64,000 nt of DNA from Firmicutes bacterium CAG:882 (lineage in GTDB: Bacteria; Bacillota; Clostridia; Lachnospirales; Lachnospiraceae): positions 14,273-78,272 of the forward strand of contig FR895425.1 in the NCBI GenBank assembly GCA_000435595.1, given 5' to 3'. A program made the position numbers and the translations under genes. Below are positions 5,967 through 58,419 of the stretch, piece by piece; position 1 is the stretch's first letter, and each line of letters starts with the position of its first letter. A model generated the notes under the pieces. That model was not told where the DNA came from. It did not search any database and saw only the letters and a program-made list of their open reading frames with translations.

Positions 5967-6004
5967 GTCTTGTCTGAGCGGTGAATAATCCTATTGAATA
6001 AAAT

Positions 6005-6055
6005 AAAGCTCCGCGGGAGAATGGAGAATATCTCCGATTTCCTGCGGAGCTTTTT
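6005..6055. terminator. bidirectional hairpin terminator between ilvC and the minus-strand HTH gene
   Basis: aaagctccgc...gcggagcttttt inverted repeat with A and T runs on either side. Confidence 0.6.
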
Positions 6056-6094
6056 ACTTTGCAATGAGGTTTTGCTGAATGATACTCCCGACGG

Positions 6095-6436
6095 TTAATT
6101 TATTTCAAGCAGCTTGTTCACGGCTGATGTCATTTCAGGGTGTTCCCTCAGGGCAAGGATGACCTTTCTTTCGTATTCGGTGGCATTTATCGGAGTATTT
6201 TCCTTATATCCGAAGGTGCTTAAAATATCATCGACGTGATAGATTTCACACAGAACCAGCAGCGTGTCGGCATCAGGCTGTGCCTGACCGCTTTCCCATC
6301 CGTAGAGAGTCTTGTCGGCGACGTTTATTGATTTATCGGACAGCTTTACCACCACATCATGTACAGTCAAAGAATTCTTTTTTCTGAGCTCTTTTAAAAC
6401 TTTGGCTATCATCTCATTTTTCATAATTTCCTCCAC
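6095..6436 (-). CDS. XRE-family HTH transcriptional regulator (113 aa)
   Basis: N-terminal HTH_3-like segment MIAKVLKELRKKNSLTVHDVVVKLS...KTLYGWESG. Divergent from the ssp operon. Confidence 0.7.
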   Translation of the reverse strand: MEEIMKNEMIAKVLKELRKKNSLTVHDVVVKLSDKSINVADKTLYGWESGQAQPDADTLLVLCEIYHVDDILSTFGYKENTPINATEYERKVILALREHPEMTSAVNKLLEIN

Positions 6437-6706
6437 AAAACGGTATTATTCGTTTGAACAAATTTTTATAAATTTGGGTTAAAATTCTGTATTTATCATA
6501 ATATGAATGCTTTCCACAAAAGCGCGTATTTAAGCGGAAATTCAGGGAAAACATTATATTCTTATAATATCCCAGTGCATAATCAAGGTCAAACTATTCT
6601 TAGTATCACAGAATTATACTGTTGAAATTCTTATTAACAAAGACTATAATATAAGAAAGTTCTGTGAATTACAGAATACAGAATACATAATACTATAAGC
6701 AGAGAA
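6437..6706. promoter_or_regulatory. divergent promoter and operator region with repeated ACAGAAT/ATTCTGT motifs
   Basis: aaaattctgtattt at 6481-6494 and cacagaatt at 6606-6615. Perfect inverted repeat ttctgtgaattacagaa at 6660-6676. Tandem acagaatacagaatac at 6671-6686. TATAAT boxes at 6563 and 6644. Confidence 0.45.
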
Positions 6707-6916
6707 ATGGAGCTTTGCAGGGTGGACAGACATAATGTGACACAGCGGATATCACAGTATTTACAGGAGAATCATATATCGGTTGAACAGGTTGAACGTG
6801 ACCTTGGAATGGAGCGTGGCAGGCTGTCTTGTGCAAGCGGCATGGAGCTTGGGGCGGCGGAATTTCTTGAACTGTGCCATTATCTTAATGTCCCGCCTGA
6901 GAGCTTCAGAGGTTAA
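6707..6916 (+). CDS. small HTH (XRE/Cro-like) protein, 69 aa, first gene of the ssp operon
   Basis: ISQYLQENHISVEQVERDLGMERGRLS helix-turn-helix. Ends 13 nt before the sspD-like start. Size and position resemble R-M controller (C) proteins. Confidence 0.55.
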   Translation: MELCRVDRHNVTQRISQYLQENHISVEQVERDLGMERGRLSCASGMELGAAEFLELCHYLNVPPESFRG

Positions 6917-6929
6917 TACGGAGGAATGA

Positions 6930-8660
6930 ATGCGGCATTACAGATGCACATTGCACAACATAGAACTTAATAAAAATTACTGTGATGAATGTGAAAGCAG
7001 GGAGCATGTGGAGGTCACATCGGATATCTACTATTGTACGCATTGCAATGTACCGATTTACGAGGAAAAATGTCCGGTATGTCATGGGCAGTGCAGCAGA
7101 ATTGCGGCTGATGTCAGACCTGTATTTCCAAGGGAAAGGCTTTTGTATGAGATACTTGAGGGTGAACCGCTTAAATATCTTCACTCATCCGTGTGGAATG
7201 CAAGCGGCAATTATTACATGACAGATGGCGTGTTAAAGCGCTTTAATGTTGGAAGGCTCAGTAAGCTTTCACAGGAAGATATAGATAATATAAGAGAGCA
7301 GCTGGAGAAATATGAGAAGGCTAATGAGGATAATTCGTTTTCGGAGTACATTGAGCGTTTTACAAGCTGTAACAGTGCAAGATATGATGAGATAACACAG
7401 GAGGCTGTGAGCTATATTCAGGATATAGCGGCAGCCTATGATGTGAGGGACATGTTTGTGTCATTTTCAGGCGGAAAGGATTCGACCGTCACATCAGACC
7501 TTGTTATGAGAGCGTTAAGTAATCCAAGAATACTTCATATATTCGGGGACACAACGTTAGAGTTTCCTAAGACGGAGGAATATGTAGCGCGGTTTAAGAA
7601 GGCGCATCCTATGACGCCTGTTCTCTCATCAAGGAATAAGGAGAAGAATTTTTCGGAGCTGTGTGAGCTTATCGGACCGCCGAGCCGAGTGATGCGCTGG
7701 TGCTGTACCATTTTTAAGACGGGAGCAATCAACAGAAAGCTTACGGCACTCTTTAAGGATAAGACGAAGATACTGGCTTTTTATGGCATAAGGAGAAGTG
7801 AGTCAGCAAGCAGGAGCAAGTATGAGAGGGAGACGCAGGGGCGGAAAATATCCAAGCAGGATACGGTATCTCCGGCAATAGACTGGATGGATTTTGATGT
7901 ATGGCTCTATATTCTTAAGAGAAAGATTGATTTTAACGAGGCATACACATACGGCTATGCGAGAGTGGGGTGTTTTTGCTGTCCTAATAACAGCGTATGG
8001 TCTGAGTTTTTATCCAAGATATATATGCCTGAACAGTATGGCAGATGGCAGGAATTTCTTGTGGAATTTGCAAGGAGCATAGGAAAGCCGGATGCTGAGG
8101 AGTATGTAAGAAGCGGCAAGTGGAAGGCCAGACAAGGAGGCAATGGCATAGCCTACGCGGACAAGGCGGTTGTAAGCTTCACACCATGCGTTCTTGAGGA
8201 GAACAGTTTTAATTATGATTTATTAAGACCTGTAAGTGAGGAATTATATGAGCTTTTCAAGCCGTTCGGATATCTTGATTTTAATATGGGAAATGCCCGC
8301 CTTGGAGAGGTATACATTCTTAATAGACGGGGAACACCTCTTTTGAGACTTCAGGGAAGAACAGGGAGTACGCATCTTAAAATTACAATTCTCGACTACC
8401 ATATTGACAAGGCAAAGAGTGTTGAGAAGGCTGAGGAGAAGGTTAAGTGTCAGCTCACCAAGTATCAGTTGTGTATGGGATGCCGTGCATGTGAGGGCGT
8501 GTGCAGGCATGGAGCGATAAGGCTTGACAGCATGCCTGACGGAAGCACGGTTTATCACATAGATAATGAGAAATGTGTGCGGTGTGCTGAGTGTGTCAAC
8601 CATTTTAATTCAGGATGCTATATGAAGAAGGTGCTTGCGGTTAAGCGAAAACAGATATAG
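6930..8660 (+). CDS. sspD: PAPS-reductase-like PP-loop ATP pyrophosphatase (SspD/DndC-like) with N-terminal zinc ribbon and C-terminal 2x[4Fe-4S] ferredoxin
   Basis: PP-loop FSGGKDST. N-terminal CDEC..CTHC..CPVCHGQC. C-terminal CMGCRACEGVC and CVRCAECV...C ferredoxin motifs. Operon context with DUF4007, DUF499, cysteine desulfurase and DUF262/DUF1524. Confidence 0.7.
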   Translation: MRHYRCTLHNIELNKNYCDECESREHVEVTSDIYYCTHCNVPIYEEKCPVCHGQCSRIAADVRPVFPRERLLYEILEGEPLKYLHSSVWNASGNYYMTDGVLKRFNVGRLSKLSQEDIDNIREQLEKYEKANEDNSFSEYIERFTSCNSARYDEITQEAVSYIQDIAAAYDVRDMFVSFSGGKDSTVTSDLVMRALSNPRILHIFGDTTLEFPKTEEYVARFKKAHPMTPVLSSRNKEKNFSELCELIGPPSRVMRWCCTIFKTGAINRKLTALFKDKTKILAFYGIRRSESASRSKYERETQGRKISKQDTVSPAIDWMDFDVWLYILKRKIDFNEAYTYGYARVGCFCCPNNSVWSEFLSKIYMPEQYGRWQEFLVEFARSIGKPDAEEYVRSGKWKARQGGNGIAYADKAVVSFTPCVLEENSFNYDLLRPVSEELYELFKPFGYLDFNMGNARLGEVYILNRRGTPLLRLQGRTGSTHLKITILDYHIDKAKSVEKAEEKVKCQLTKYQLCMGCRACEGVCRHGAIRLDSMPDGSTVYHIDNEKCVRCAECVNHFNSGCYMKKVLAVKRKQI

Positions 8661-8662
8661 AA

Positions 8663-9577
8663 ATGAGGAACAGTATGTCAGAACAGACAGCTAAGAAGAT
8701 AAGACTAAAGGGACATGAGACATTTATATTGAGGGAAGGGTGGCTTGCTAAGGGTATAAGAGCTGTTGCTGATAATCCTAAGGTATTTTCCGTGTATTCA
8801 GGTGCGGATGCACTCGGCGTTGGAACTAATATGGCAAAGGCAATACGGTATTGGCTTAAGGCCGCAGGACTTATCGAAGAGACAAAAAACGGAGTGGAGC
8901 TCAGCGCATTCGGGAAGAATGTCATGACATATGATTCCTATTTTGAGGACAGATTTACGTTATGGATAATACATGCACATATTGCGTCGAATGCAGAGCT
9001 TGCAACGAGCTGGTATGTGTTTTTCAACAGAATAGGGTGTGAGGAGTACACGAGGGACGAGCTTGTGTACTCACTCAATCGTGAGCTGTGTGTGTATTCG
9101 GGCTTGCAGGAGCTGCCGGAGAGTTCTGTGTCAGCGGATGTGACAGCCATTATCAATATGTATTCGAGAGATAAGGGCAGAGATTATGACCCGGAGGAGA
9201 AGAAGCTGAGCCCGTTTGCGGAACTCGGACTTCTGAAGCGGGACAACAGGTATGTGAGAAAGCAGACACCTGTATCGGATGATGCACTTGAGTATGCGGT
9301 TCTGTATCTGTTAAGGAGATACTTTGAACAAGAGAAGACGGACAGCGTGAGCATAGATAAGCTCTTGACGGGAAGCGGACTTATGGGGCGTATATTTAAT
9401 CTCAACCGTGTGGAGCTCAATTTTTATCTTGATAAGCTCGCAGTAGATGAATATATCACTGTTAACAGGACTGCGGGACTTGATATGGTGTATTCTCTTA
9501 GGAATATGAGCGCGCAGGATGTAATAAGTGCATATTATAAGAACAGGCAGACACTTTTAAAAGATGAGGACAGGTAA
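8663..9577 (+). CDS. sspB: DUF4007-family protein (SspB-like, putative nickase)
   Basis: N-terminal GHETFILREGWLAKG motif that I associate with DUF4007. 304 aa. Starts 2 nt after sspD. Confidence 0.6.
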   Translation: MRNSMSEQTAKKIRLKGHETFILREGWLAKGIRAVADNPKVFSVYSGADALGVGTNMAKAIRYWLKAAGLIEETKNGVELSAFGKNVMTYDSYFEDRFTLWIIHAHIASNAELATSWYVFFNRIGCEEYTRDELVYSLNRELCVYSGLQELPESSVSADVTAIINMYSRDKGRDYDPEEKKLSPFAELGLLKRDNRYVRKQTPVSDDALEYAVLYLLRRYFEQEKTDSVSIDKLLTGSGLMGRIFNLNRVELNFYLDKLAVDEYITVNRTAGLDMVYSLRNMSAQDVISAYYKNRQTLLKDEDR

Positions 9578-9586
9578 GGACAAGAT

Positions 9587-12500
9587 ATGCTTAAGGATAT
9601 GGTTAAGATAGATAAGAGATTTGAAAATTCAATTAATCTCTACCTTGATATAGATAACAGGAATAAGATAGACAGCTATGTGTATACGCGCTCATCGCAG
9701 AACATAATGGACTATTATCTGGACAATATAGATAACGATAGGAATCATGCGACAATGCTCATCGGACCTTACGGCAAGGGCAAGTCACACATGCTTCTGG
9801 TTCTTCTTGATAAGGTGAGAAGTATGGAACATCCATACCTCCCGATAATAATATCCGGCACGGGGGATGACCTCAATCAGGTATTTCTTATAGGACTTAC
9901 CGACGCGCTTAAGAGGGCACGGCTTGAAAAGCTTGCACCTGAGAGCTATTACAGCGAAGCCGCAAGGCGTATCGGGCAGTGGAAATGTGATTTTCCCGAT
10001 GCGTATGATAGATTCAAGGCAGAACTTCATAAGCTTGGCATAGGCAGCGTCGATGATTTTACCAGGGAGCTTGGCAGGCAGTCGAAGAAAGCACTTGGCA
10101 TGTTTGAGCAGATATACCCTGTTATAACAAGCGGCAGTGAATTCAAGCCGTTTCTGATGGTCGAGACGGTGAGAATATATGAGCAGATAAGGGATGTGCT
10201 TGCGAGGGAGTATGGATATTCGGGTCTTTATATTATTTTTGATGAGTTCAGCAAGTACGTCGAGGGGCATGAGAAGGACACATTCGCTAAGGATATGAAG
10301 GTGCTGCAAGATATGTGTGAGCTGGCGGGAAGAAGTGGTGACGGAAGAATATATCTCACCTGCGTTGCACACAAGAGCATCAAGGAGTACGATGCTAAGC
10401 TCTCCGGCGAGATGAAGAACGCATTCAGAGGTGTAGAGGCAAGGCTTGATGAGGTGAGATTTGTTGTTTCCTCACAGAACAATTACGAGCTCATAGGAAA
10501 TGTAATCAGGAAGGACAATAATGCTTTAAAAAGAATCCGTAGAATTGAGCGGTATTACCAAAACGCTATAAAGTCCTATAGCTTTTCATGTTTTTCGGGA
10601 CTTTTTGATGAGGACGATTTCAGAAAGTATGTTGTTGAGGGATGTTTTCCTCTTATGCCTCTCACGGCATACATGCTTTTACATATAAGTGAGAAGGTTG
10701 CACAGAATGAGAGAAGCATATTCACGTATCTGTCGCACGACGAGAAGGGAAGTCTGTGCAGGATAGTGGAGGAGTGTACCCTTGATGAGGCAGATTACGG
10801 TGTCACGGCGGATACAATATATGATTATTTTAAAAGCCTTTTCAGGGCTGACGGCACGGATGCACTCATACACAACGAATGGCTCAAGGCAGAGTATGCA
10901 CTTGAACGTGCAGAGGATGAGGATGAAAAGAAAGTAATCAAGGTTATAGCACTTATAGGCATAATAGACAGACCTGATGAGGTATCGGCGGACATGGAGC
11001 ATATCGCATGCTCCCTCAATATTACTTCAGAGGAATGCAGTGCGATAATGGACAGACTTGTGGAGCGCAAGGCGGTTATTTACCGCAGGAGAAAGCATGC
11101 TTACTGCTTCTATAACAATGTGGGGGTTGACATTCAGGCGGAAATTGCTGGCAGAGCGGCGAAGCTTCCAGCAGATGCGGATATTCTCGGAACATTGAAG
11201 AGCATATCAGAACTTGATTATGTTCTTCCGAAGAAATACAATCAGGATTTTTCGATGACAAGGTACTTTGAGTATGTGTTCATGACACCTGAGCAGATAA
11301 GCAGGCTCCCTAAGCCGTCTGTGCTTTTTGAACAGCGTTTCTCCGACGGAAAAATTGTTGCGGTTGTGTCTGAACAGCCTGTAGAGTACGATGAGCAGCT
11401 TTTTGAAAGACTTAACGATAAGAGAATAGTGGTGCTTGTGCCGCAGATGGTATTCAATCAGACGGACAATATAAGAAAATATATAGCGGCAAGGGAGCTT
11501 ATCAAGGATAAGGCGTTTATCGATGAGAACGCAGTGTTAGAGCAGGAGCTTGTCAATTATTGTGATGATGCAGCTTACGAGGTGAACAGATACTTAGAGG
11601 AGGCATTTGACACAGAAAGCGGAATGTGCCGGGTATATCATGCCAATGAGAAATATGCCGGAGGTTTCAGACATTCAATGACATTTAACATGTTTTTGAG
11701 CAGCATAATGATGGATTATTATGACAATGCGCCTATTGTCAACAACGAGCTTATAAACAGACAGAACATATCTGCACAGAACAAAAAGGCAAGAAATAAG
11801 ATAGTGGATATGATTTTGTCCAATGCTGACTGCTCGGAATTTCTGAAGGGAACATCGCCTGAATCAACCATATATAGGGCTGTCCTTGTTAATACAGGAG
11901 TATGCGGAGGCGGAAATATTGAGTCCGGCTGTGAGCGTGTCATTATGGAAATCGACCGCTTCATTGCACAATGTGATGACAACAGATGCTCATTCAAGGT
12001 TCTGTATGACAGAATTATGGGTATGGGATACGGAACAAGAAAGGGAATAATCCCAATATATATATCACTATGTCTTTCAAGACTGCATGATAAGCCGGTG
12101 CTGAGCTTTAAGGAGAAGGAAGTTGAACTTGACTCGGGCACACTTGGCAATGTAAATGACGCCCCGGGGAACTATTATCTGTATGTGGAGCACAAAAGCA
12201 TAGAGAAGCAGAATTACATTAATGAATTAAAAAAGCTCTTTGGTGCAGGCACCGGGCAGGATGATGACAGAGGTGTTCTTACCGGAATACTCAGATGGTT
12301 CAGGGCTCTGCCGCAGGCGGCATCCAATATAGGAAGGGATGCACGATGTGATGAGAACATGGCGGCTAAGCTTAAGAAGCTGTGCAGTATGCTGAGACGT
12401 CAGGATTACAACCCTCATGATTTCCTTTTTACCGAACTTCCTGCAGGGGTAGGGGCAGACAAGGGAGATTATGTATCGGCGATAGATGAACTCGTCAGGT

Positions 12501-13057
12501 TAAAACAGTTTCTCGACCACTATCTCGAGAATGTTTCATCCGAGGCGGCTTCAATTATAAAGCGCAGATGTGGTGCGGACGAGCAGGACAGCTTGAGAGC
12601 GGTTCTTGACGGTTATAATGCAAGATATACAGGACAGCGTAAGGACATTATTTTAAATCGACGCACACAGTCAATCGTAAGGTACATTTACGGACTGTCT
12701 ACATTCGATGACGCAGAGATTGTGTCGGGATTATCTAAGCTCGTCACGGATATATATATAGATGACTGGCGCGACGGAATGCTTGAGAACTTTAAAAGAG
12801 GCTGGAATGAGTTCTGTGATGAAATCGAGAGTGAACATTCCGCCGGAAGCGGCACCGGGATAGAAAAGCTGCTCCTGGAAGGTCAGGATCAGAACCTGCT
12901 TGACGGCAGTGACACAGACGACAACAGCACAAGCTATTTTTTAAAGAATGCAATAAGGGAAGCAATAGATGAGTTCGGTGACAGCCTTGATACCAAGGAG
13001 AAGGTCGCCGTGCTTGCGAGAGTGCTCGCCGAGCTTGTCGCCGGAGAAAATACATAG
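9587..13057 (+). CDS. sspC: large P-loop ATPase, DUF499/BrxC-like (SspC-like)
   Basis: 1156 aa. Walker A GPYGKGKSHMLL matches the G-x-Y-G-x-GKSH loop of DUF499 ATPases. Lies between the DUF4007 and cysteine desulfurase genes. Confidence 0.6.
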   Translation: MLKDMVKIDKRFENSINLYLDIDNRNKIDSYVYTRSSQNIMDYYLDNIDNDRNHATMLIGPYGKGKSHMLLVLLDKVRSMEHPYLPIIISGTGDDLNQVFLIGLTDALKRARLEKLAPESYYSEAARRIGQWKCDFPDAYDRFKAELHKLGIGSVDDFTRELGRQSKKALGMFEQIYPVITSGSEFKPFLMVETVRIYEQIRDVLAREYGYSGLYIIFDEFSKYVEGHEKDTFAKDMKVLQDMCELAGRSGDGRIYLTCVAHKSIKEYDAKLSGEMKNAFRGVEARLDEVRFVVSSQNNYELIGNVIRKDNNALKRIRRIERYYQNAIKSYSFSCFSGLFDEDDFRKYVVEGCFPLMPLTAYMLLHISEKVAQNERSIFTYLSHDEKGSLCRIVEECTLDEADYGVTADTIYDYFKSLFRADGTDALIHNEWLKAEYALERAEDEDEKKVIKVIALIGIIDRPDEVSADMEHIACSLNITSEECSAIMDRLVERKAVIYRRRKHAYCFYNNVGVDIQAEIAGRAAKLPADADILGTLKSISELDYVLPKKYNQDFSMTRYFEYVFMTPEQISRLPKPSVLFEQRFSDGKIVAVVSEQPVEYDEQLFERLNDKRIVVLVPQMVFNQTDNIRKYIAARELIKDKAFIDENAVLEQELVNYCDDAAYEVNRYLEEAFDTESGMCRVYHANEKYAGGFRHSMTFNMFLSSIMMDYYDNAPIVNNELINRQNISAQNKKARNKIVDMILSNADCSEFLKGTSPESTIYRAVLVNTGVCGGGNIESGCERVIMEIDRFIAQCDDNRCSFKVLYDRIMGMGYGTRKGIIPIYISLCLSRLHDKPVLSFKEKEVELDSGTLGNVNDAPGNYYLYVEHKSIEKQNYINELKKLFGAGTGQDDDRGVLTGILRWFRALPQAASNIGRDARCDENMAAKLKKLCSMLRRQDYNPHDFLFTELPAGVGADKGDYVSAIDELVRLKQFLDHYLENVSSEAASIIKRRCGADEQDSLRAVLDGYNARYTGQRKDIILNRRTQSIVRYIYGLSTFDDAEIVSGLSKLVTDIYIDDWRDGMLENFKRGWNEFCDEIESEHSAGSGTGIEKLLLEGQDQNLLDGSDTDDNSTSYFLKNAIREAIDEFGDSLDTKEKVAVLARVLAELVAGENT

Positions 13058-13073
13058 AATCGGGGAGATACAG

Positions 13074-14231
13074 ATGAGTGTAATTTACCTTGACAATGCA
13101 GCGACCACCTATCCAAAACCGGAGGGTGTCTATGAACAGATGGATAAAGTCAACCGCAGTCTGGCGTTTAACGCCGGACGTGGTTCTTATGCTCTGGCGC
13201 AGCAGTCGGCAGTTATCATTGACAATCTCAGAAGAGAATTATTGCGCATTGCGAATGCGATGAATGTAGCAGAGGTCGTACTGTCGGCTTCTGCTACATT
13301 TGCATTGAATCAGATAATCGGCGGACTGGGTATGAGGGCGGAGCAGTATGTGTATATATCGCCTTATGAGCACAATGCCGTTGTTAGAACACTTTACAAT
13401 CAAAAAATATACAGAGATGAAGAGAACTGCACGCATATTATTGTCATGCCTCTTCTGCCGGACGGGGGAATCAATGAGGAAAGGCTTCTGTACGAATTCA
13501 GCATACACACACCATCGTTCGTGTTCATGAGCAATGTGAGCAATGTAACCGGTTACATCCTTCCTGTGGAGAGGATTGCGTCCGCAGCCAAGGCATACGG
13601 TGCCACCGTTGTCGTAGACGGCTCACAGGCATTAGGCCTTGTTCCTTTTGACATGTCGGCATCAGACGTGGATTTCTATGTGTTTGCCGGACACAAGACA
13701 CCTTACGGTCCGTTCGGAATCGGCGGTTTCTATATGAAAAACGGAAGGAACCTCGACACATTCATAGCAGGCGGCACAGGAACAGATTCTCTCAATGTCG
13801 GCATGCCGCTCGCGGGTACGGTACGTTATGAACCGGCAAGCCCGAATGTCATAGCGGCAGCAGGGCTGCTTGCCGCTGTAAAAGAACTCACGACAGATGA
13901 GATAGCACACCGCCTGGAGCATGAGAAGAAACTTACTGAATATCTTGTAAACGGAATGCGCAAGATACCGGGCATCAGGCTGTATCTTGCGCCTGCACAG
14001 TCGCATGTCGGAATAGTCGCTTTCAATCTTGCGGGCTACAAGGCCTCCGACATCGGAATGATTCTCGATGCGGATTACAATATTGCGGTTCGCACAGGCT
14101 ACCACTGTGCTCCGCTTATACATGAATATTTGGACGACAGAGAATACCTTGGAGTTGTGAGAGCAAGCATAAGCATGTTCACGGGTTATGATGAAGCGGA
14201 TGCGCTGGTCGAGGCACTGGGGGAGATTTAG
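13074..14231 (+). CDS. sspA: cysteine desulfurase (class V aminotransferase, SspA/DndA/IscS-like)
   Basis: MSVIYLDNAATTYP N-terminus and PLP-lysine region FAGHKTPYGPFGIGG. GGGGAG RBS before the ATG at 13074. The ORF track starts earlier, at 12969, inside the sspC 3' end. Confidence 0.8.
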   Translation: MSVIYLDNAATTYPKPEGVYEQMDKVNRSLAFNAGRGSYALAQQSAVIIDNLRRELLRIANAMNVAEVVLSASATFALNQIIGGLGMRAEQYVYISPYEHNAVVRTLYNQKIYRDEENCTHIIVMPLLPDGGINEERLLYEFSIHTPSFVFMSNVSNVTGYILPVERIASAAKAYGATVVVDGSQALGLVPFDMSASDVDFYVFAGHKTPYGPFGIGGFYMKNGRNLDTFIAGGTGTDSLNVGMPLAGTVRYEPASPNVIAAAGLLAAVKELTTDEIAHRLEHEKKLTEYLVNGMRKIPGIRLYLAPAQSHVGIVAFNLAGYKASDIGMILDADYNIAVRTGYHCAPLIHEYLDDREYLGVVRASISMFTGYDEADALVEALGEI

Positions 14232-14243
14232 GAGGATGAGAAG

Positions 14244-16535
14244 ATGGATTTAAAGTTTGCAGAGATAAGAAATATTAATCAGTTATGCAATTTAGAAAGT
14301 AAAGGAAATAACAATGAAAATGTACCGCTGAATGTAAATATTCCATATTACCAGAGACCATACAAATGGGATAATACAAGAATTGGTAATCTAATTACAG
14401 ACTTTTATGATAATGAAGAAAATGAGAATGAAGATGAGGGATATTTTGCTGGTTCGGTTGTTATGGTTAAAGGAGAAAGCGGAAGATTTGAGGTTATTGA
14501 CGGGCAGCAGAGAATCACGACACTTTTTTTAATGAATTATCTGAGATTTTTGCTTATTAGAGGATATATTGAGCTGATAATAAAAACCAAAAAAATGTCT
14601 AAAATCAAGACACAAATTGATGAGCTTATTGATACAGCGGTTAATTTGTTTGATAAGGAAAAAATTATAAAATTACGTAATGTAAGCAGTGGAATAGATA
14701 ATTATATCAGCGATATTGAAAATGATGGACATGATGCTGAAAAAAAGGACAGCATATGGGATGCATTACTTGAATATTACGAGAAAGAATTAGGTTTGCC
14801 AAAGAGAAATTTTACTAATATTGAAAGTTATAAAAGGGAATGTTATCTGGAAAACAAGAAATTTCTGGCGAATGTAGGACTGACACTAAGGTACAGTAGA
14901 AACAGTTACAATGAAAAGCTTAAAGAAGCTTTATGCAGAGCTGTAATACTAATGCAGAGTGATGATATCAATCCGTGTTTTACAATGTGTTGTTTTGAGA
15001 AAAATTCAGTGTTTAAGAGTGTAGTAACAGAACAATATATGAATGCTATGAAATATATATATGATAATATTGTCACCGCATATATAGTCGGTGAAGAAAA
15101 ACCGGTTGAGTATATTGTAAAGCTAGAAAATGCAATGAAAAATATATTGGATAATATTAATTTTTGCGTTGTGGTTACGGGCAGAGAAAAGGATGCATAT
15201 ACATTATTTGAGGTATTAAATGATAGAAATTTCCCGGTTGAAGATTTGGAATTAATTAAGAATCTTTTTTACAAATATTACTGTAAAAATAGCGAAAACA
15301 ATGATAACACGGATTATTTCATTGAAAAGGCGGATACAAAATGGGGGGAAATATTTAGTGACACAATAGGCAAGGAACAGTCAAAACTTATTTCATATCT
15401 TGCTGCACAATATTTTACAGCGGATGGAAGACTCAAGTACAATGATAATGAGAGATATAGGGAGGCAATAGAAAAACAATACCTGAACAGAAAACAGCGA
15501 TATGATGGAGAAGCATTGTTAAGTGATATATGTGTTTATGAAATGCTTGAAATTATATTAGATGAATTTGATTTTAAATATCAGAAAAAAGCTGAAAATG
15601 TCATAAAAGCAGAGAGAGAAAATTCAAAATCAATTACATACAAAGCGTTAAATTTGTTCAATGCACTTAAATTGTACGGAGTAATACCTGCAATTACCAA
15701 TATTATACTTAAGAAGTTTTTGGAAAAAAATCCTATTAACAGATGGACTGGTGGGGATTATATTACTGCATTTAGAAAGTATGTACAGGAAATAAGGGAT
15801 GACAGAGAAAATAACAATACAGATTTTGCGGAGATTCACAGTGTAGCTTATGATTTCTGGCGTTTTGCACTGCTTGCACAAAATTCGGACAAACCAAGAA
15901 ATATAGCAAAAGACTATATCTCGAAAAATTATGTATCAAATTCTGACTATTCTTTAAAAGTCACAAGTCAGGAAGCAGATGTGTTGAATGAAGAGTTCAG
16001 AAGATGGATTAACGCATGGAAATATGGAAATGAAATTTCCCAGCTGAAGGTTAAAGTACTTTTTATTAATTTATTTAATTCAACTAAAGAGGGAAATACA
16101 CTTATATTCAACAAAACCGGCACAAATTTTAAAACGGATAAAATACAGCTTGATCATTTAGAGCCGGATAAAACCAATGCAGTTGCAAGTGAAAAGTATT
16201 TTGAACCTTCATCTAAGCTGCCAAGAGAAACATATACCGATAGTCTCGGTAATTTCATGATTATGGATGCAGGCAGTAACAATGACAAGAACACAATTCC
16301 GTTGCAGGATGCTCTTGAAATTTATGATAATATGGCTGGTGGTCATTGGCTGATAAAAGAAATTCATGACCTGTTTTATGAGAATGAATGTGGTGTAGAT
16401 AAGAACATTGATGGAAAAAAATACAGAATTCCGAATGAAGAATTTTTCATCAGAAGAAAAAAGAGATTGATATGTTATTTTAAGGCTATTTTGACTAAAA
16501 AGCTTGGCGATAATAAGGTGGAATTTGAACAGTAA
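14244..16535 (+). CDS. sspE: DUF262 (ParB-like NTPase, DGQQR motif) plus C-terminal DUF1524/HNH-like nuclease; SspE-like PT-sensing restriction protein
   Basis: RFEVIDGQQRITTLFL in the N-terminal domain. C-terminal QLDHLEPDK His-Me finger-like motif. 763 aa. Directly follows sspA. About 28-30% GC. Confidence 0.75.
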   Translation: MDLKFAEIRNINQLCNLESKGNNNENVPLNVNIPYYQRPYKWDNTRIGNLITDFYDNEENENEDEGYFAGSVVMVKGESGRFEVIDGQQRITTLFLMNYLRFLLIRGYIELIIKTKKMSKIKTQIDELIDTAVNLFDKEKIIKLRNVSSGIDNYISDIENDGHDAEKKDSIWDALLEYYEKELGLPKRNFTNIESYKRECYLENKKFLANVGLTLRYSRNSYNEKLKEALCRAVILMQSDDINPCFTMCCFEKNSVFKSVVTEQYMNAMKYIYDNIVTAYIVGEEKPVEYIVKLENAMKNILDNINFCVVVTGREKDAYTLFEVLNDRNFPVEDLELIKNLFYKYYCKNSENNDNTDYFIEKADTKWGEIFSDTIGKEQSKLISYLAAQYFTADGRLKYNDNERYREAIEKQYLNRKQRYDGEALLSDICVYEMLEIILDEFDFKYQKKAENVIKAERENSKSITYKALNLFNALKLYGVIPAITNIILKKFLEKNPINRWTGGDYITAFRKYVQEIRDDRENNNTDFAEIHSVAYDFWRFALLAQNSDKPRNIAKDYISKNYVSNSDYSLKVTSQEADVLNEEFRRWINAWKYGNEISQLKVKVLFINLFNSTKEGNTLIFNKTGTNFKTDKIQLDHLEPDKTNAVASEKYFEPSSKLPRETYTDSLGNFMIMDAGSNNDKNTIPLQDALEIYDNMAGGHWLIKEIHDLFYENECGVDKNIDGKKYRIPNEEFFIRRKKRLICYFKAILTKKLGDNKVEFEQ

Positions 16536-16556
16536 TTAAAAAAGGAGGCAGTGTAA

Positions 16557-16707
16557 TGCAAAAACCCGACGAAAGATTATTGAAGACCGTCATGTTTGAA
16601 ATACTTCATCTTGAACGGAAAAATCTCAGAAGCAGAGCAATGACGGATCAGAAAATGGTGGAGGAGATTGGGAAGGTTATCTCGGAGAATATTAAGCTAT
16701 GTAAATA
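16557..16707 (+). CDS. small hypothetical protein (50 aa) coupled to the downstream ATPase
   Basis: Strong RBS AAGGAGG 7 nt before the ATG at 16557. TAA stop abuts the next ORF. Not in the ORF track because it is under 60 aa. Confidence 0.4.
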
Positions 16708-16728
16708 ATGGAGGCGGAGAGGGTACGA

Positions 16729-18768
16729 ATGAAGTTTAAAACACTCAGAATGAAGAATTTTATGCGTTATAAAGGAATAAATGAGATTAATTTCAGTTGT
16801 GACGAAACGCATAATGTTACGGTGATATTGGGGGATAACACTGTAGGAAAAACAACGATTGCTCAGGCGTTTAGATGGTGTCTGTATGGTGCGATTATGG
16901 CTGAACGCGGAAAGAAAGAATCAGATTATCAGCTTCTGAACAATGATGCGCTTGCAAAACTGGATGCCAATAAGAAAGCTTCTGTTTTTGTGGAGATAAT
17001 AGCCGTGGATAGCGAAAGGCTGTATACCATCCATCGTGAAGTTGAATATATGAGGGTGTATCCTAAGTTCATTGCAAAAGAGTCATACAAGACATTGAAA
17101 ATGTTTATTTCAGATATAGACAGTCCTGATATCAGGCGTGAGGTGGAGCCCGGACCTAATTACAATAAGATAAATGAGCTTATAAATGAACTGTTTCCTA
17201 AAAATCTTTCACATTATTTTCTGTTTGATGGTGAGAGATGGAGTGATTTTTCGATAAATGGTGTCAGGGAGAACATTAAAGAATCAGTACATATTTTAAC
17301 CGGACTTTCTGCCTACAAGTCCGCCATGTATCATCTGAAGGATATGGGAGACAATTCAGTTATAAAAAAGTTCAGAAAAAATATTCAGGGAAAAGGCAAT
17401 GTGTATGATGATTATGAGCGTGAGCAGACCAGACTTGAACGTGAAGTGGAAAAATTACAGAAACAGATAGAAAGTATCGATGCCAATATCAGTCTTTGCA
17501 ATAAAAAATGCGATGAGATAGAGTTATATCTTGAGGAAAACAAGGATACGGAACAACTGCAGACGGCATATAAACAGTCTCAGAGAATGCTGAGGGCACA
17601 GGGGGAGAGATACTTAGCCAACTATAAAACTTTTATTTCGGAATACAATTCATGTGCATACAGACTGTTCGCCGGACCGCTTATCGAGGCTTCATTAAAA
17701 ATGGTCAAATCTGTGGCAGGTGAGCGCAGGGATATTCCACACATGAGGCAGGCGAGCATTGATTATATAATCAGAAGCGGAAGATGCATCTGCGGGACAC
17801 CGATAACGGAGGGGTCGTATGCTCTCGAATGCCTGCTCGAACAGAGAAATTATCTTCCGCCTGCCGATATGGGTTCTCTGCTCGGAGAATTTGAAAAGAC
17901 CGCTAACCGATGGAAAAGGGTTGATGACGAACTGCCAGACGATGCGGCAAGGGTTGATGAGAGCGCAAGGGATTATGAGGAGACAATCATTCAGCTTCAG
18001 AAAATGGAAAATAAGATGAATGAGAATATCGATTTTGCAGAGAAGAGAGCACAACTTAGGAGATATAAGGATGAAGCAAACAAGGCTGCAGTGAAAAAAG
18101 GTGAGATAAAGGGACTCATATCATCATATCAGACTCGAATACAGAGTATAGAACTCCAGATGAAGAATCAGGAAATAAAGAATGCCGAAAATGAAAAATG
18201 GAGAAACAAGCTGGGGCTTGCGGAGGCTGTATACGATAAATTATCAGCGGATTTTTCGGAGCGGGAGAAAAAGATATTTTACGAATTGAATGAAGAAATT
18301 CAGGCGAATTTTTCGCGTATGTTCAATGCGAAAGATAAAAGAATCCGGCTCTCGGAAAACTATGAAATTCAGATGTGCTATAAGACCGACATAGGCTATC
18401 AGGAAGAAAAGAACCTGTCGGAAGGAGAAAAGGTAGCAAGAAATTTTGCATTTATTGTGACAATAATGGATTACAGCACACGAAAGAAGAATGAGTATAA
18501 TAAAGCTGACTCAATCGTTGAGGATAAGGATGATGATTGCAATGATGCGCTTCCTATTGTGCTTGATGGACCATTCTCAAAACTCGGCGAGGAAAATATC
18601 TCTCTGGTGGCAAATGTGCTTCCGAAGGTATCGGAGCAGGTCATAGTATTTATGCTCAGAAAAGACTGGGCGTACACGGGACTTGATGAGTATGTCGGAG
18701 CGGAGTACTCGATTGACAAAAATCCTGAAGAAAGCTTTGCGTCGATAAGAAAGGTGGACAGAGGCTGA
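16729..18768 (+). CDS. SMC/DndD-like ABC ATPase (AAA_23 N-terminal head, coiled-coil middle, C-terminal head)
   Basis: N-terminus MKFKTLRMKNFMRYKGINEINF...ILGDNTVGKTTIAQAFRWCLYG (Walker A). Long charged coiled-coil middle. C-terminal LPIVLDGPFSKL (Walker B/D-loop). 679 aa, like DndD. Confidence 0.7.
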   Translation: MKFKTLRMKNFMRYKGINEINFSCDETHNVTVILGDNTVGKTTIAQAFRWCLYGAIMAERGKKESDYQLLNNDALAKLDANKKASVFVEIIAVDSERLYTIHREVEYMRVYPKFIAKESYKTLKMFISDIDSPDIRREVEPGPNYNKINELINELFPKNLSHYFLFDGERWSDFSINGVRENIKESVHILTGLSAYKSAMYHLKDMGDNSVIKKFRKNIQGKGNVYDDYEREQTRLEREVEKLQKQIESIDANISLCNKKCDEIELYLEENKDTEQLQTAYKQSQRMLRAQGERYLANYKTFISEYNSCAYRLFAGPLIEASLKMVKSVAGERRDIPHMRQASIDYIIRSGRCICGTPITEGSYALECLLEQRNYLPPADMGSLLGEFEKTANRWKRVDDELPDDAARVDESARDYEETIIQLQKMENKMNENIDFAEKRAQLRRYKDEANKAAVKKGEIKGLISSYQTRIQSIELQMKNQEIKNAENEKWRNKLGLAEAVYDKLSADFSEREKKIFYELNEEIQANFSRMFNAKDKRIRLSENYEIQMCYKTDIGYQEEKNLSEGEKVARNFAFIVTIMDYSTRKKNEYNKADSIVEDKDDDCNDALPIVLDGPFSKLGEENISLVANVLPKVSEQVIVFMLRKDWAYTGLDEYVGAEYSIDKNPEESFASIRKVDRG

Positions 18769-19289
18769 TGGCTGATTTTGAATTTTTTAAAAAGCAGTTT
18801 GAATTTAAAGGAAAGCACTCAAGAATGGTGTCTGAACTTTGTGTTGCTAATGATTTTGAGCATACATTTTTTAGAAGGATTATTGACGTGTATGTATTTG
18901 CAGCAATAATAGGTATCCGTCTTGACAGAAAAGCTTCGGAAGATTATTCACCGGTGGAGACAAAAAGTATTTTTCCGGAGCAGATGATAAATGCCAAGGA
19001 AGACTTGGATTTCATAATGCAGATGATGATAATGTTAGATTCGGGTCCGGGAACTACTGCTGAGGACAGAGTAAGGGAAGCCTTTAGAGGTGCACAGACT
19101 AAGGAAGAGTATGACAGGCTGATGGGAATTTTCAATGACTATGTGAGAGGTGGAGTTGAAGAACTTTACGAAAGACTTGTTGTCAGAAAGCCTGATTCGG
19201 ATGGCGGATACTACGACGAAAGAACCGCTAATCTTATGGCGCTTTATGATAGGCTTGTTCCGAGGAATATTTCAAAAATCACAAAATAA
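18768..19289 (+). CDS. hypothetical protein (173 aa), translationally coupled to the DndD-like ATPase
   Basis: TGATG stop/start overlap with the upstream gene. No motif I can recognise. Predicted mostly helical. Confidence 0.5.
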   Translation: MADFEFFKKQFEFKGKHSRMVSELCVANDFEHTFFRRIIDVYVFAAIIGIRLDRKASEDYSPVETKSIFPEQMINAKEDLDFIMQMMIMLDSGPGTTAEDRVREAFRGAQTKEEYDRLMGIFNDYVRGGVEELYERLVVRKPDSDGGYYDERTANLMALYDRLVPRNISKITK

Positions 19290-19328: not shown

Positions 19329-19445
19329 CGTTATATCATACCAAGCGATAAACGGTTACAACAATAAGGTCCCGCCGCTGGCGGTGTACCTCAAAGCTCT
19401 AATCCCACTTAAAGTGAATACTTTAAGTGGGATTATCTATTTTAA
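19329..19445 (+). ncRNA. tracrRNA: tracrRNA (anti-repeat, nexus-like hairpin, terminal hairpin, T-run)
   Basis: ttatatcataccaagcgataaacggttacaacaa is 31 of 34 identical to the CRISPR repeat on the same strand. It is followed by taaggtcccgccgctggcggtgtacc (hairpin) and aatcccacttaaagtgaatactttaagtgggatt (hairpin), then ctatttt. TATAAT at 19316-19321 sits about 8 nt upstream. Confidence 0.7.
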
Positions 19446-19634
19446 ACAGAATTATTATTAAAGCGAACAGAATAATGATATCCAATCCCTTATTGGTTTT
19501 GACTCAAAAGGAAATTCTGCTATTTTGCAGGAAAATATATGAGTCATAATATTGCTTGGTATTAAATGATTTAATGAATTATTTAATCTGATAACCGTTT
19601 GACTTGATAAGGTTTTGGAGGAAGGGATTATATT

Positions 19635-22600
19635 ATGGAGGAAATGAAGCAGACAGGCAGAAAAAATGAAGCACCTAAGCTGACGGATTTGAATTACAGA
19701 ATTGGGCTTGATATTGGTATTGCTTCTGTAGGCTGGGCGGTGCTTGAGAACAACTCTCATGACGAGCCGTTCAGGATTATTGATTTGGGTGTCAGAATTT
19801 TTGATACCGCAGAGCAGCCTAAGACGGGTGCATCACTAGCACTTCCAAGGAGGGAAGCACGTTCAGCAAGAAGGAGAATAAGAAGGCGCAGGGACAGGAT
19901 AGAACGCATCAAGAAGCTTTTTCAGGCTGAAGGGCTTATAAATATCGATGAGTTTGAGGCTCGTTACAAAATAGCAGGACTTTCTGATGTTTACAAGCTG
20001 AGATATGAGGGGCTTGACAGGAAGCTTACAGATGATGAACTGGCACAGGTATTATTACATATTGCAAAGCACAGAGGATTTAAGTCGACAAGCAAGGCAG
20101 AAGAAGCGGAAAACGAAAATGACGCAGCAAAGAAAAAAGAAGCAGGGGCTTTAAAGAAGGGTATAAGCAATAATAAAAAGCTTATGGAAGAAAAAGGATA
20201 CAGGACGGTTGGAGAAATGATGTATCTTGATGAAAACTTCCGTACAGATTGTCCATGGAATGAAAATGGCTACATACTTACACCTCGCAATAAGTCCGGC
20301 GATTATAAGCATACCGTTTTAAGAGATATGCTTGTAGATGAAGTAAGAGAGATATTTAAGTCTCAGAGAAGTCTTGGAAATATTCACGCTTCCGAAGAAC
20401 TTGAGAATGCATATCTTGATATTATGCTCAGCCAGCGTTCATTTGATATGGGACCGGGTGCTCCGAGCAAGTATGCGATGGAGGGATTTGAGGACAGAGT
20501 AGGATTATGTACCTTTGAAGGTAAGAATGGTGAGAAGCGTGCAGCAAAGGCAGCATATACCTCAGAACTTTTTGTGGCATTGGAGAAGATAAATCACACC
20601 AAGATTGTGAGTGATGATGGAGCCACAAGATTTTTGACGACGTATGAACGCAAGAGCATTATTGAACTTATGCATAAGCAGCAGACTGTAAAGTATGCGG
20701 CAGTGCGTAAGGCGATTGGCTTAGCGGAGGAGGACAAATTCTACAACCTTAACTACAGTCCGAAGGCTGGAAGCAAAAAGTCTCCTGAAGATACAGATTT
20801 TGTTAAACTTGAAAACTATCATAAGATACGCAAGGCTCTTGGAGAAGACATAGTTTCAGAACATTTACCTGCTGAAAAGATAAAGCTGTATGACAGTATT
20901 GCAACTATACTTACACTGTTCAAGAATGATGACAGCCGAATTAAGAGATTTATCGAACTGGGGATTGGTGAGGAATGCTTTGACGGGCTCCTTTCATTAT
21001 CACCAAGCAAATTTCATAACCTTTCTCTGGTTGCAATGGGGAAGATAATTCCGTTTTTGCTTGATGGCAACACCTATGACAAGGCATGCGAACTCGCAGG
21101 GTATGATTTTAAGGCAGATAATAAAGGCGAGAAGTCTGTTCTGCTGAAAGGAAAAAATATAACGGATATGGTGAATGATATTACCAATCCGGTTGTGAGA
21201 CGTTCTGTATCTCAGACAATAAAGGTTATAAATGCAATTATACTTGAGTATGGAAGTCCGCAGGCGGTTAATATTGAGCTTGCAAGGGAAATGTCAAAGA
21301 ACTTTGATGAAAGACGAAAGCTCAAGTCTGATATGGAATCACGCGAAAAAGAAAACAATAATGTCATAAAGCGTGTAAAAGAATATAAGCTGAATCCAAC
21401 AGGTCAGGATATAGTTAAGTTCCGCCTCTGGGAGGAGCAGGACAGAAGATGCTTATATTCAGGTGAGAAGATTGATATAAATGACCTTTTTTCAAGAGAT
21501 GGCGGTTATGACGTTGACCACATTCTTCCGTACAGCATCACATTTGATGATACATATCGCAATAAAGTACTTGTAAAAGCATCTGAGAACAGGCAGAAGG
21601 GAAACAGAACACCTTATGAGTATTTTATGGCTGAGAAGGATGATGATGAATGGAATGTTTACGAGACTTTGGTTCGAAATACAGTCAAAGATTATAAGAA
21701 GGTGCTCAAGTTACTCAAGAAACATATAACAGAGGATGAAAAGAGCGAATTTAGGGAGCGAAATCTTACTGATACAAAATATATTACCAGAATCATCTAC
21801 AATATGATACGTCAGAACCTTGTGTTAAAACCATATCTTAGTCTTGAAAAAGAACGCAAGAAACAGGTCATGGCTGTAAATGGTTCCATAACACACTATC
21901 TCAGTAAGAGATGGGGACTTGAAAGCAAGGATAGACGTACAGACACACATCACGCACAGGATGCAGTTGTCATCGCCTGTACAACTGATGGAATGATAAA
22001 TAAAATATCGCGATATTCCAAGGGACGAGAGCTACTTTATTCAAGAGGCTTTAAGTTTGTAGATGAAGAAACAGGGGAAATACTTTCGCGCGATAATTTT
22101 ACCCGTGAGGAGTGGGACGAGAAGTACGGGGTGAAAATCCCTATACCGTGGGAACATTTCAGGGATGAGCTTGATATCCGTATGTCAAGGTACAACGGAA
22201 CAGGTGATGACTCAATCGACAAAACAACGCCGAGGGATTTTATTTTGTCACACAGGGATGCGCACAAATGGATAAATTACCCTGAGTGGATGTTTGTCGA
22301 AGGAAGACCGGGACGTAGAGGAGTGCTCGACGGAATTTTTGTTTCCAGAATGCCGAAGCATAAAGTGAGTGGTCAGGCACATGAGGAGACGGTTCGCTCG
22401 GCGAAGTATTATAATGATGGTGGCAGTGTATTTGAGAGTGGTGGATATGTAGTTACCAAAAAATCAATTCAGGACATCAAGCTAAAAGACGGGGAGATAA
22501 AGGAGTTCTTCAATCCGGACAGCGACAGATTACTTTATAACGCTTTGGTTGACAGACTTAATAAATTTGAAAACGATCCAAAGAAGGCTTTCGCGGAGCC

Positions 22601-41339: not shown

Positions 41340-41610
41340 TATTTTTGCCATAAAGTATTATCCGGTCATCGCAGATGTGCAATACAAAAATTGCAATACT
41401 TTTCACATAAGGCAGGTCTTCTGACTCAAGATATGGCATCCGCATCTGTCTTCCCGGAGCAGAGCTGCCCCAGTGACTTTTTCACCGGCACTTGGTGCTT
41501 AGCGGACTAATCTTTTACAGCGACGGGCTCGTTCAGGATTATCACCTGATTCCCTCTTAGCAGCCGGAATACCGGCTGAACCATTATGTCCGGCATTCTG
41601 TATACACAGA
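41340..41610 (-). promoter_or_regulatory. cobalamin (AdoCbl) riboswitch
   Basis: Minus-strand sequence aagagggaatcaggtgataatcctgaacgagcccgtcgctgtaa matches the GGGAA..GGTG.AAATCC..GCCCG core. agtcactgg downstream matches the B12 box (GCCACTG) with one mismatch. Confidence 0.5.
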
Positions 41611-58334: not shown

Positions 58335-58419
58335 GCAGTCGTGGCGGAATTGGCATACGCGCTAGACTAAGGATCTAGTCCATATTGCTTGGGTGCGGGT
58401 TCAAGTCCCGCCGACTGCA
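58335..58419 (+). tRNA. class II tRNA with long variable arm, tRNA-Leu. The anticodon loop reads cuAAGga.
   Basis: Perfect 7-bp acceptor stem gcagtcg/cgactgc. D-stem gcg/cgc. Anticodon stem ctaga/tctag. T-arm gcggg-ttcaagt-cccgc. 85 nt. No encoded CCA. Confidence 0.75.

Follow-up and report, generated by a model that had tools for sequence, protein, structure and literature searches.

The stretch of DNA analysed here, hereafter the window, comprises 64,000 nucleotides of contig FR895425.1 from the Lachnospiraceae member Firmicutes bacterium CAG:882, and carries an operon resembling the Ssp systems of phosphorothioate (PT) modification and restriction. Two small genes encoding helix-turn-helix (HTH) proteins lie at the head of this operon: an XRE-family regulator gene transcribed away from it and a smaller HTH gene, probably of XRE fold, that forms its first cistron, directly ahead of the gene for an SspD-like protein (Table 1). 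The DNA between them is AT-rich (29% G+C) and dense in short repeats. An earlier account made from the letters alone (the sequence-only reading) had taken the two genes and the repeats for a controller circuit of the kind provided by C-proteins in restriction-modification systems or by BrxR in BREX (bacteriophage exclusion).

The XRE regulator had been given a length of 113 amino acids. A minus-strand open reading frame of that length is present (6095–6436), but translation is more likely to start at ATG 6424, since the sequence GGAGGA directly precedes this codon; the resulting 109-aa protein is also what is called in 10 gut-metagenome contigs. It consists of an N-terminal HTH domain (approximately residues 5–65) and a C-terminal part predicted to form two helices. 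Pfam HTH_3 is matched with 24.1 bits (cut-off 23), HTH_31 and HTH_19 fall just under threshold, a PHROG family annotated as a transcriptional repressor/regulator is matched at 1e-8, and the family profile finds the HTH domain of ImmR when compared with the PDB (E = 2e-3). Judged by these matches, membership of the XRE / Cro-C1 HTH superfamily is weak but genuine. Neither WYL nor WCX domains were detected by Pfam in either HTH protein of the window.

For the co-directional gene, the 69-aa reading frame described previously (6707–6916) exists, but its product is most likely 64 aa long, starting at GTG 6722, as the closest clade (L019, L021–L024) has an in-frame stop three codons after the equivalent of ATG 6707 and a conserved start, GTG GAC AGA, that corresponds to window position 6722. 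A conserved ATGGAGC provides a GGAG 9 nt upstream of this GTG, and distant homologues likewise start at or after the equivalent position. The 13-nt gap between the stop codon of this gene and the ATG of the PAPS-reductase gene at 6930 was as originally described. The window protein itself remains under Pfam thresholds (HTH_19, 18.2 of 30.2 bits, E = 2e-3; HTH_26, 16.6 of 22), a homologue on a phage-like contig (L111, below) passes HTH_26 with 24.3 against 22, and the profile built from 37 homologues finds the HTH at the N-terminus of Stl, the SaPI2 master repressor (E = 1e-4). An AlphaFold2 (AF2) model built from a 65-sequence alignment (pLDDT 76) superposes on C.BclI, C.AhdI, SinR-N, ClgR and P22 C2 with TM scores of about 0.7. 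Together, these last three results favour an XRE-type fold. Every one of the 65 clusters in this small family is annotated as hypothetical.

The sequence-only reading listed at least five copies of an ACAGAAT/ATTCTGT heptamer between the two genes. Four are exact (6484 on the minus strand, 6608, 6671 and 6678), and a fifth, GTTCTGT at 6659, carries one mismatch. The heptamer occurs 27 times in the window against an expectation of 12.5, and none of 100 shuffles reached 27. The inverted repeat TTCTGT-GAATT-ACAGAA at 6660–6676, with 6-bp arms and a 5-bp spacer, proved to be real, as did the tandem pair at 6671–6684, but the latter arose by duplication of 7 bp in this lineage only. The duplicated sequence, ACAGAATACAGAAT, repeats the right half of the operator named O3 below and is shared by the window with ten identical contigs of the same species; the nearest variants lack the duplication and carry a perfect 7-3-7 palindrome, TTCTGTGAATCACAGAA, and in L011–L016, without the duplication, the sequence at this place is TTCTGTGAAT-CACAGAAT.

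A repeat search revealed a pattern that the earlier account had missed: the heptamers are half-sites of three phased palindromes, detected as 18–19-nt units starting at 6597, 6628 and 6660 and thus spaced by 31 and 32 nt. We designated these O1, O2 and O3. The full unit is a 19-bp palindrome, ATTCTT-N7-AAGAAT, with the core TTCT-N9-AGAA, of which the three copies are imperfect versions. In the whole 64 kb, exact TTCT-N9-AGAA cores occur just twice, both in this intergenic DNA and within 80 bp of each other. When the intergenic DNA was simulated 20,000 times with a first-order Markov model, four or more sites with no more than one core mismatch arose at a frequency of 5e-5, and a triple with 29–34 bp spacing never arose.

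These palindromes are arranged around two predicted, back-to-back promoters. The predicted operon promoter is of sigma-70 type, matches the consensus at 11 of 12 positions in a promoter scan and is identical in L011–L016; its start site is placed at approximately 6657. The putative XRE promoter matches at 10 of 12 positions, both of its hexamers are kept in L011–L016, and distant loci have TTGAC(G/A) at the corresponding place beside O1; its start site is predicted at about 6557. Relative to the predicted start sites, O1 is centred (6605) at about −52 for the operon and about −48 for the XRE gene. O2, centred on 6636 (about −21), is the most conserved element of the region across loci, and O3, centred on 6668, would run from about +3 to +20 of the operon transcript. 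A further operator-like site at 6485–6501 is weaker; it is kept in the nearest variants, and distant loci lack an equivalent, which makes any role for it uncertain. This site falls in extra leader DNA of the window clade, in which the XRE leader (6425–6563) measures about 130 nt from the predicted −10 hexamer to the ATG, compared with about 25–35 nt in distant relatives. Some relatives (L021, L023 and L024) carry one more site, TTCT-N9-GGAA, which is 63 bp past O1 and near +12 of the XRE transcript. An Rfam scan of the window returned nothing within 6000–7000, giving no indication of an RNA element.

Table 1 Genes, predicted promoters and operator-like sites of the Ssp-like locus, in window coordinates.
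Feature	Position	Strand	Sequence	Details
XRE-family regulator gene	6095–6424 (stop codon included)	−		divergent to operon; 109 aa
Distal operator-like site	6485–6501		TTCTGTATTTATCATAA	leader between XRE promoter and start codon; one core mismatch
Predicted XRE promoter	6564–6592	−		TTGACC 6592–6587; 17-nt spacer; TATTAT 6569–6564
Operator O1	6596–6614		ATTCTTAGTATCACAGAAT	between divergent −35 hexamers; exact core
Predicted operon promoter	6622–6650	+		TTGAAA 6622–6627; 17-nt spacer; TATAAT 6645–6650
Operator O2	6627–6645		ATTCTTATTAACAAAGACT	fills −35/−10 spacer of operon promoter; one core mismatch
Operator O3	6659–6677		GTTCTGTGAATTACAGAAT	starts at about +3 of predicted operon transcript; exact core
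Second ACAGAAT copy	6678–6684	+		7-bp tandem duplication of O3 right half-site
Small HTH gene (probable XRE fold)	6722–6916	+		first in operon; most likely 64 aa from GTG 6722
PAPS-reductase / 4Fe-4S gene (SspD-like)	6930–8660	+		ribosome-binding site GGAGGA 6920–6925
SspB/DUF4007	8663–9577	+		PADLOC SspB 1.5e-55
SspC	9587–13057	+		PADLOC SspC 3e-107
SspA class-V cysteine desulfurase	13074–14231	+		PADLOC SspA 1e-34
DUF262/GmrSD nuclease	14244–16535	+		Pfam, PADLOC and NCBIfam scans
PbeC/DndD-like ATPase	16708–18768	+		Pfam, PADLOC and NCBIfam scans
dnd_assoc_4-like	18768–19289	+		Pfam, PADLOC and NCBIfam scans

To follow this arrangement across related genomes, species-representative genomes were searched with an SspD-like protein alignment; this yielded 80 loci (SspD identity 54–93%), most of them from Lachnospiraceae, Eubacterium and Roseburia, and HTH genes were sought by profile searches of their six-frame translations. 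The small HTH gene lies directly upstream of sspD in 47 of the 80 loci, and a close divergent XRE homologue (E ≤ 6e-35) is present in 44, with a distant one in L076 besides; the shortfall lies mostly at contig ends. The intergenic DNA has diverged past alignment, but its architecture is constant. The same order recurs down to approximately 55% SspD identity: TTGAC(G/A) of the XRE promoter, O1, TTGAAA or TTGACA, O2 fused to TATAAT, and O3. The operator-filled promoter TTGnnn-[TTCT-N9-AGAA]-TAnAAT (consensus TTGAaATTCTt-N7-aAGAATAtAAT) was found in 54 of 81 loci, with O1 29–32 bp upstream of O2 in 31 of these 54. In related loci O3 follows O2 by 32–34 or 39–42 bp, equivalent to three or four helical turns. 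O1 is missing wherever the XRE gene is missing, with one exception. In deeper clades of the SspD tree the pair is absent, and so are the operators except in L071/L081.

The pair, the promoter and the operators also accompany sspD-B-C-A next to different restriction partners. Distant homologues of the small HTH protein, located by look-ups of exact proteins, belong to an XRE / small HTH / SspD / SspB / SspC / SspA block at a different chromosomal site, where the restriction partner is a PLD-SF2 helicase instead of the DUF262 protein. In distant relatives the partner set comprises a PLD-SF2 helicase, a 56-aa protein and an AAA_23 ATPase (L097:17748-20228, L100:17767-20222 and L101:17767-20222); its counterpart at 14244–19289 of the window is DUF262/GmrSD plus the PbeC-like and dnd_assoc_4 proteins, with regulators and modification genes unchanged. 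As sspD-B-C-A keeps the regulators while the site, the flanking genes and the restriction partner change, the regulators belong to the mobile modification module.

A scan of IMG/VR with the XRE alignment identified 11 phage-like contigs with homologues of 37–55% identity, and on most of these a small-HTH homologue is divergent from the XRE homologue. The intergenic layout recurs on these contigs; L111 and L106, for example, have O1, then TTGACT/TTGACA-O2-TAAAAT/TATAAT, then O3 and the ribosome-binding site of the small gene. The operators there follow the pattern TTCTTC-N5-GAAGAA. On L111, genes for an RNase_T-type exonuclease and a tyrosine integrase (PHROG 1, 2e-47) come after the XRE gene on its own strand, and the small HTH gene heads the opposite gene set. 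This order is the classic lysogeny-module arrangement; the contigs come from uncultured samples, and none of them is a cultured phage. On another contig (L105:1198-8294), the XRE/small-HTH/operator module heads an operon for 346-aa and 1006-aa proteins that have no Pfam, PADLOC or PHROG match and adjoin a reverse transcriptase and a TPR protein; these may be another cargo under the same switch.

The locus in the window thus has the layout of a phage switch, with divergent genes for a repressor and a small regulator, back-to-back promoters and multiple shared operators, and this layout is repeated in 40 or more related loci and on the phage-like contigs. Co-conservation of the pair, the promoter and the three phased operators strongly supports the part of the sequence-only reading that saw the pair and the repeat-rich DNA as regulatory. 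We propose, with a probability of roughly two in three (0.68), that a two-protein switch of the type used by temperate phages, CI/Cro or TP901-1 CI/MOR, has been recruited to the Ssp-like PT defence operon. The genes, the sites, their positions and their joint conservation are seen directly in the sequences; the division of labour in this switch, along with repression, cooperativity and bistability, is deduced from them.

The probable operator-binding repressor is the XRE protein. In its recognition-helix region (consensus KTIYGWESG), residues K38, T39, Y41, W43 and E44 are invariant or almost invariant across Ssp and phage loci, and the operator core is constant too, whereas the helix-3 region of the small protein is variable and has 5-residue deletions in two members; for this reason operator binding is attributed to the XRE protein. 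In the window clade only, G at half-site position 5 goes with an ADKT form of the XRE helix, a suggestive but weak association, drawn from a single clade and confounded by phylogeny. Covariation of operator positions with protein residues was accordingly dropped as proof, this clade-level association being the only one.

In the switch that we propose, XRE dimers would bind the three palindromes, which, with three helical turns from centre to centre, face the same side of the DNA. Binding would probably be cooperative through the C-terminal two-helix part, which could mediate dimerisation and inter-site cooperativity in the manner of the helical hooks of SinR and TP901-1 CI. Occupation of O2 in the promoter spacer and of O3 just downstream would block the operon promoter. 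O1 would couple the operon promoter to that of the XRE gene; it may make repression stronger through cooperativity, or it may adjust how much XRE protein is made. The small HTH protein, as the first product of the operon, would be the counter-regulator, either competing at the operators (Cro-like) or binding the XRE protein and altering or abolishing its binding to DNA (MOR-like). On transfer into a naive cell, where there would be no repressor, the operon would fire, and the small protein would be made first and modulate the repressor; at steady state the operon would be low or in one of two states, with tight and possibly ON/OFF expression. Limiting or timing a potentially autotoxic nuclease, the purpose suggested previously, is plausible as a hypothesis.

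Several observations weigh against this proposal. Profile searches found no significant sequence match of either protein to CI, Cro or MOR themselves: the matches to the P22 C2 HTH were marginal (E about 0.5), and there were none to MOR or TP901-1 CI. Searches of GenBank phage genomes by tblastn found no XRE homologue; the small HTH protein had one weak match there (34% identity, E = 4e-3) in an unannotated faecal record named 'Bacteriophage sp.'. No operator overlaps the core of the predicted XRE promoter, so that mutual repression, which bistability needs, is not evident. The single-sequence AF2 model of the XRE protein is unreliable (pLDDT 51) and too poor for a fold search; its last 30 residues form the two predicted helices at low confidence, and predicted secondary structure is the sole basis for giving them a role in dimerisation. 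In the small protein, residues 29–44, where the recognition helix is expected, are non-helical in the AF2 model and have its lowest confidence, and conservation is confined to the C-terminal helices (EFLELCxYLxxxPE); Cro-like DNA binding by this protein is therefore doubtful. Finally, eleven loci keep O2, and most of them O3, without O1 and without either HTH gene within 4 kb, so operators can persist in the absence of a local pair. In these loci (L044, L047, L051, L054, L059, L061, L071, L072, L081, L093 and L095) the promoter TTGAAA-[TTCT-N9-AGAA]-TATAAT sits approximately 30–170 bp upstream of the sspD match; L044, L054, L072 and L093 come from Roseburia metagenome-assembled genomes. They may reflect either repeated recent loss of the pair or regulation in trans, in which a repressor with matching specificity would be supplied, for example, by a prophage.

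The closest known parallels are temperate-phage switches, of the CI/MOR type (phage TP901-1 and related phages of Gram-positive bacteria) or the CI/Cro type. In the lactococcal phage TP901-1, back-to-back promoters flank a central operator, the lytic promoter carries a second one, and a third is situated distally within mor; CI combines an HTH domain with a helical hook, whereas MOR, a small HTH protein, binds DNA inefficiently alone (PMC7250872). The window shares the gene for a larger, probable HTH repressor divergent from a gene for an HTH protein of about 70 aa that heads the opposite operon, the central operator between the promoters, the second operator on the promoter in the 'lytic' position, the third further downstream, and a repressor built from an N-terminal HTH and a C-terminal part that is helical, by prediction in the window protein. 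It differs in that neither protein has detectable homology to CI or MOR, the operator sequence is different, and the XRE protein has 109 aa without a multimerisation domain, compared with the 180 aa of CI; the genes controlled here are those of a PT modification/restriction operon rather than phage early genes. The CI/Cro switch of phage lambda (OR1–OR3) likewise has a divergent HTH pair, three similar palindromic operators in the intergenic DNA and the small protein first in the controlled operon. Lambda operators, however, overlap both promoters and so impose mutual exclusion, whereas the core of the XRE promoter is free here; they are spaced by about 23–24 bp as opposed to 31–32 bp, and the XRE protein has no RecA-sensitive peptidase domain.

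SinR of Bacillus subtilis (111 aa) resembles the XRE protein in size and in its layout of an HTH followed by a two-helix C-terminal part, the latter predicted at low confidence for the XRE protein, and it too acts in a two-state switch with a small antagonist. The half-site at the window locus, (A/G)TTCT(T/C/G), resembles the SinR consensus GTTCTYT (PMC3163267). The inverted repeat in the SinR oligonucleotide is TTCT-N6-AGAA, with N9 in its place here, and the small protein is an HTH domain and not a helical hook of the SinI type found in the SinR/SinI/SlrR system. SinR was absent from the profile matches of the XRE protein to the PDB, and Pfam gave no SinI match. Given the different spacing and the lack of a sequence match, we did not adopt SinR membership; the similar half-sites may be coincidental or serve as a lead, and we do not take them for a sign of homology.

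An unlikely simplification of the two-protein switch is control by one repressor, in which the XRE protein would act alone via O1–O3 and the small HTH protein would serve some other function, for example as a DNA-binding accessory of the modification machinery. This would suit the pairing of an invariant XRE helix with an invariant operator core, the degenerate HTH of the small protein and the translational proximity of its gene to sspD. The phage-like contigs, however, pair the small protein with an XRE homologue where no ssp genes are present, so that its partner is the XRE/operator module and not the Ssp enzymes. Furthermore, the XRE gene and operators occur without the small gene only in L029, making such separation rare (1 of about 45 loci).

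It is distinctly unlikely that the locus has a single, C-protein-like controller, with the small HTH protein activating from O1 and then repressing at O2/O3, as C.AhdI and C.Esp1396I do, and the XRE protein separate or accessory. The small protein is C-protein-sized and encoded by the first gene of the operon, the best structural superpositions of its model are with C.BclI, C.AhdI and C.EcoT38IS (TM 0.6–0.76), and the distal and proximal operators resemble OL/OR logic. Against this, no Foldseek E-value is better than 0.08, and such hits would be expected from any XRE-fold domain; it is the XRE helix that is invariant, like the operator core, and O1 that, with one exception, disappears with the XRE gene; and the two genes are inherited together, on phage-like contigs as well. 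C proteins (C.AhdI, C.BclI and C.Esp1396I) do share with the window a small protein of XRE fold, probable in the case of the window, heading a defence operon, palindromic operators at its own promoter and the likely purpose of restraining a self-toxic system. They work with one protein and two adjacent operators (the C-box), whereas we find two proteins, three operators 31–32 bp apart with a sequence unlike C-boxes, a divergent XRE protein as the probable DNA binder, and modification genes placed first. We therefore rejected membership of the C-protein family, in view of the two regulators, the three operators, the four modification genes before the nuclease and a fold likeness that is only generic.

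The other half of the earlier analogy, with BrxR, does not hold either, since BrxR is a WYL protein. BrxR/CapW regulators of BREX, cyclic-oligonucleotide-based antiphage signalling (CBASS) and other defence islands are single, ligand-sensing winged HTH-WYL-WCX proteins of an unrelated family; what they share with the window pair is an identical genomic slot. In relatives of the SspD-like family this head slot is modular, with different regulators: an HTH-WYL-WCX protein of the BrxR/CapW type in two loci (L040:2415-3446 and L094:114-1106), a single HTH_26 protein in L083/84 (L083:3696-3962), and a different, 149-aa HTH_3 protein in L076:28-477.

A quite improbable reading is that the factor recognising the palindromes is not encoded at the locus, but is for instance a host regulator or the repressor of a resident prophage with this specificity, and that the local HTH proteins have other targets. 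The eleven pair-less loci described above would fit it, and the use of TTCT-N9-AGAA operators by the phage-like contigs implies that trans-acting repressors of this specificity exist in these communities. Over the SspD tree, however, operators and pair are tightly correlated, and loci that have operators but no pair branch several times from within clades that have the pair, as secondary loss would give; O1 tracks the XRE gene, and the 64-kb window has no second copy of the XRE or small HTH gene. Chance repeats in promoter DNA, which the low G+C content and a whole-window TTCT-N9-AGAA count of 2 against a shuffle expectation of 1.8 might suggest, are hardly credible, given the clustering of both copies with simulated frequencies of 5e-5 or less, and given that position, palindromic form and helical phasing are kept in dozens of loci whose surroundings have fully diverged and which, with SspD identity down to 54%, are not near-identical copies. 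A toxin-antitoxin pair was also considered and set aside: each of the two proteins is an HTH domain, a toxin fold is lacking, and the promoter that contains the operators drives a 12-kb operon.

The genes that the switch would control follow the small HTH gene on the same strand. The SspD-like protein matches Pfam PAPS_reduct (2e-32) and Fer4_7; its best PADLOC model is BrxP of BREX type 4 (1.5e-79), compared with 7e-12 for SspD. As SspA, SspB, SspC and SspD homologues are encoded together, the name ssp operon is reasonable on sequence grounds, with the caveat of this BrxP match. The longest reading frame for the cysteine desulfurase begins within the end of sspC (ATG 12969), and the start at 13074 agrees with the Aminotran_5 match and the N-terminal sequence MSVIYLDNAATT. 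No terminator-like site was found on the plus strand between 6650 and 7100. The shared strand and tight packing suggest that the genes from 8663 to 19289 are transcribed as one unit from the promoter at 6622–6650. The first four genes after the small HTH gene are modification genes, ahead of any nuclease, so the switch would govern modification and restriction together.

The Ssp-like operon is followed immediately by genes for Cas9 (19635–23162) and Cas1 (23178–24080). Between the operon and cas9, a gap of 345 bp contains a TATAAT and a perfect hairpin (19407–19437) and is probably a tracrRNA region; two ACAGAAT copies in it (19446 and 19467) look like chance, and we took this second cluster (19446–19473) as such because it has no TTCT-N9-AGAA palindrome. 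The Rfam matches in the window at gathering threshold were a cobalamin riboswitch (41394–41601, minus strand, 95 bits) and a tRNA gene (58335–58419, plus strand), with no others.

To our knowledge, little is known of how PT systems are regulated, and DndB is the only regulator to have been characterised. Regulators at the heads of defence operons are well known in general, including C-proteins, BrxR/CapW, CapH/CapP and RptR (PMC12255303). A search of recent comparative papers and a gut-microbiome PT survey turned up no account of an XRE pair or of these operators for Dnd, Ssp or BREX-4. Phage switches of the CI/Cro type are familiar, and what is probably new is the proposed use of such a switch, with two proteins and three operators, to control PT modification and restriction genes.

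Such a switch, compact and portable, offers a testable handle on how self-toxic systems become established after transfer. It bears on the question of why PT modification is partial and heterogeneous, and why carriers of complete ssp genes can show no PT, as seen in gut isolates that have sspBCD yet lack the modification (PMC12914056). A bolder and rather unlikely extension is that the switch is heritable and ON/OFF, making PT defence phase-variable in gut Lachnospiraceae, with possible phage cross-talk; the latter is conceivable because phages of the community use the same repressor/operator family. If this were true, the small HTH protein or anti-repressor of an infecting or induced phage would de-repress the Ssp operon, amounting to infection-sensing induction; the Ssp-linked XRE protein would silence incoming phages that bear TTCT-N9-AGAA operators, a repressor-type immunity; and operons that keep O2/O3 without the pair would be controlled in trans by prophage repressors. 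The 300-bp module with its two small genes is also a possible genetic part for Lachnospiraceae, for which few are available. More broadly, the locus would represent a phage lysis-lysogeny switch reused as a controller of defence, in which a shared family of operators may allow cross-talk between phages and the defences of their hosts.

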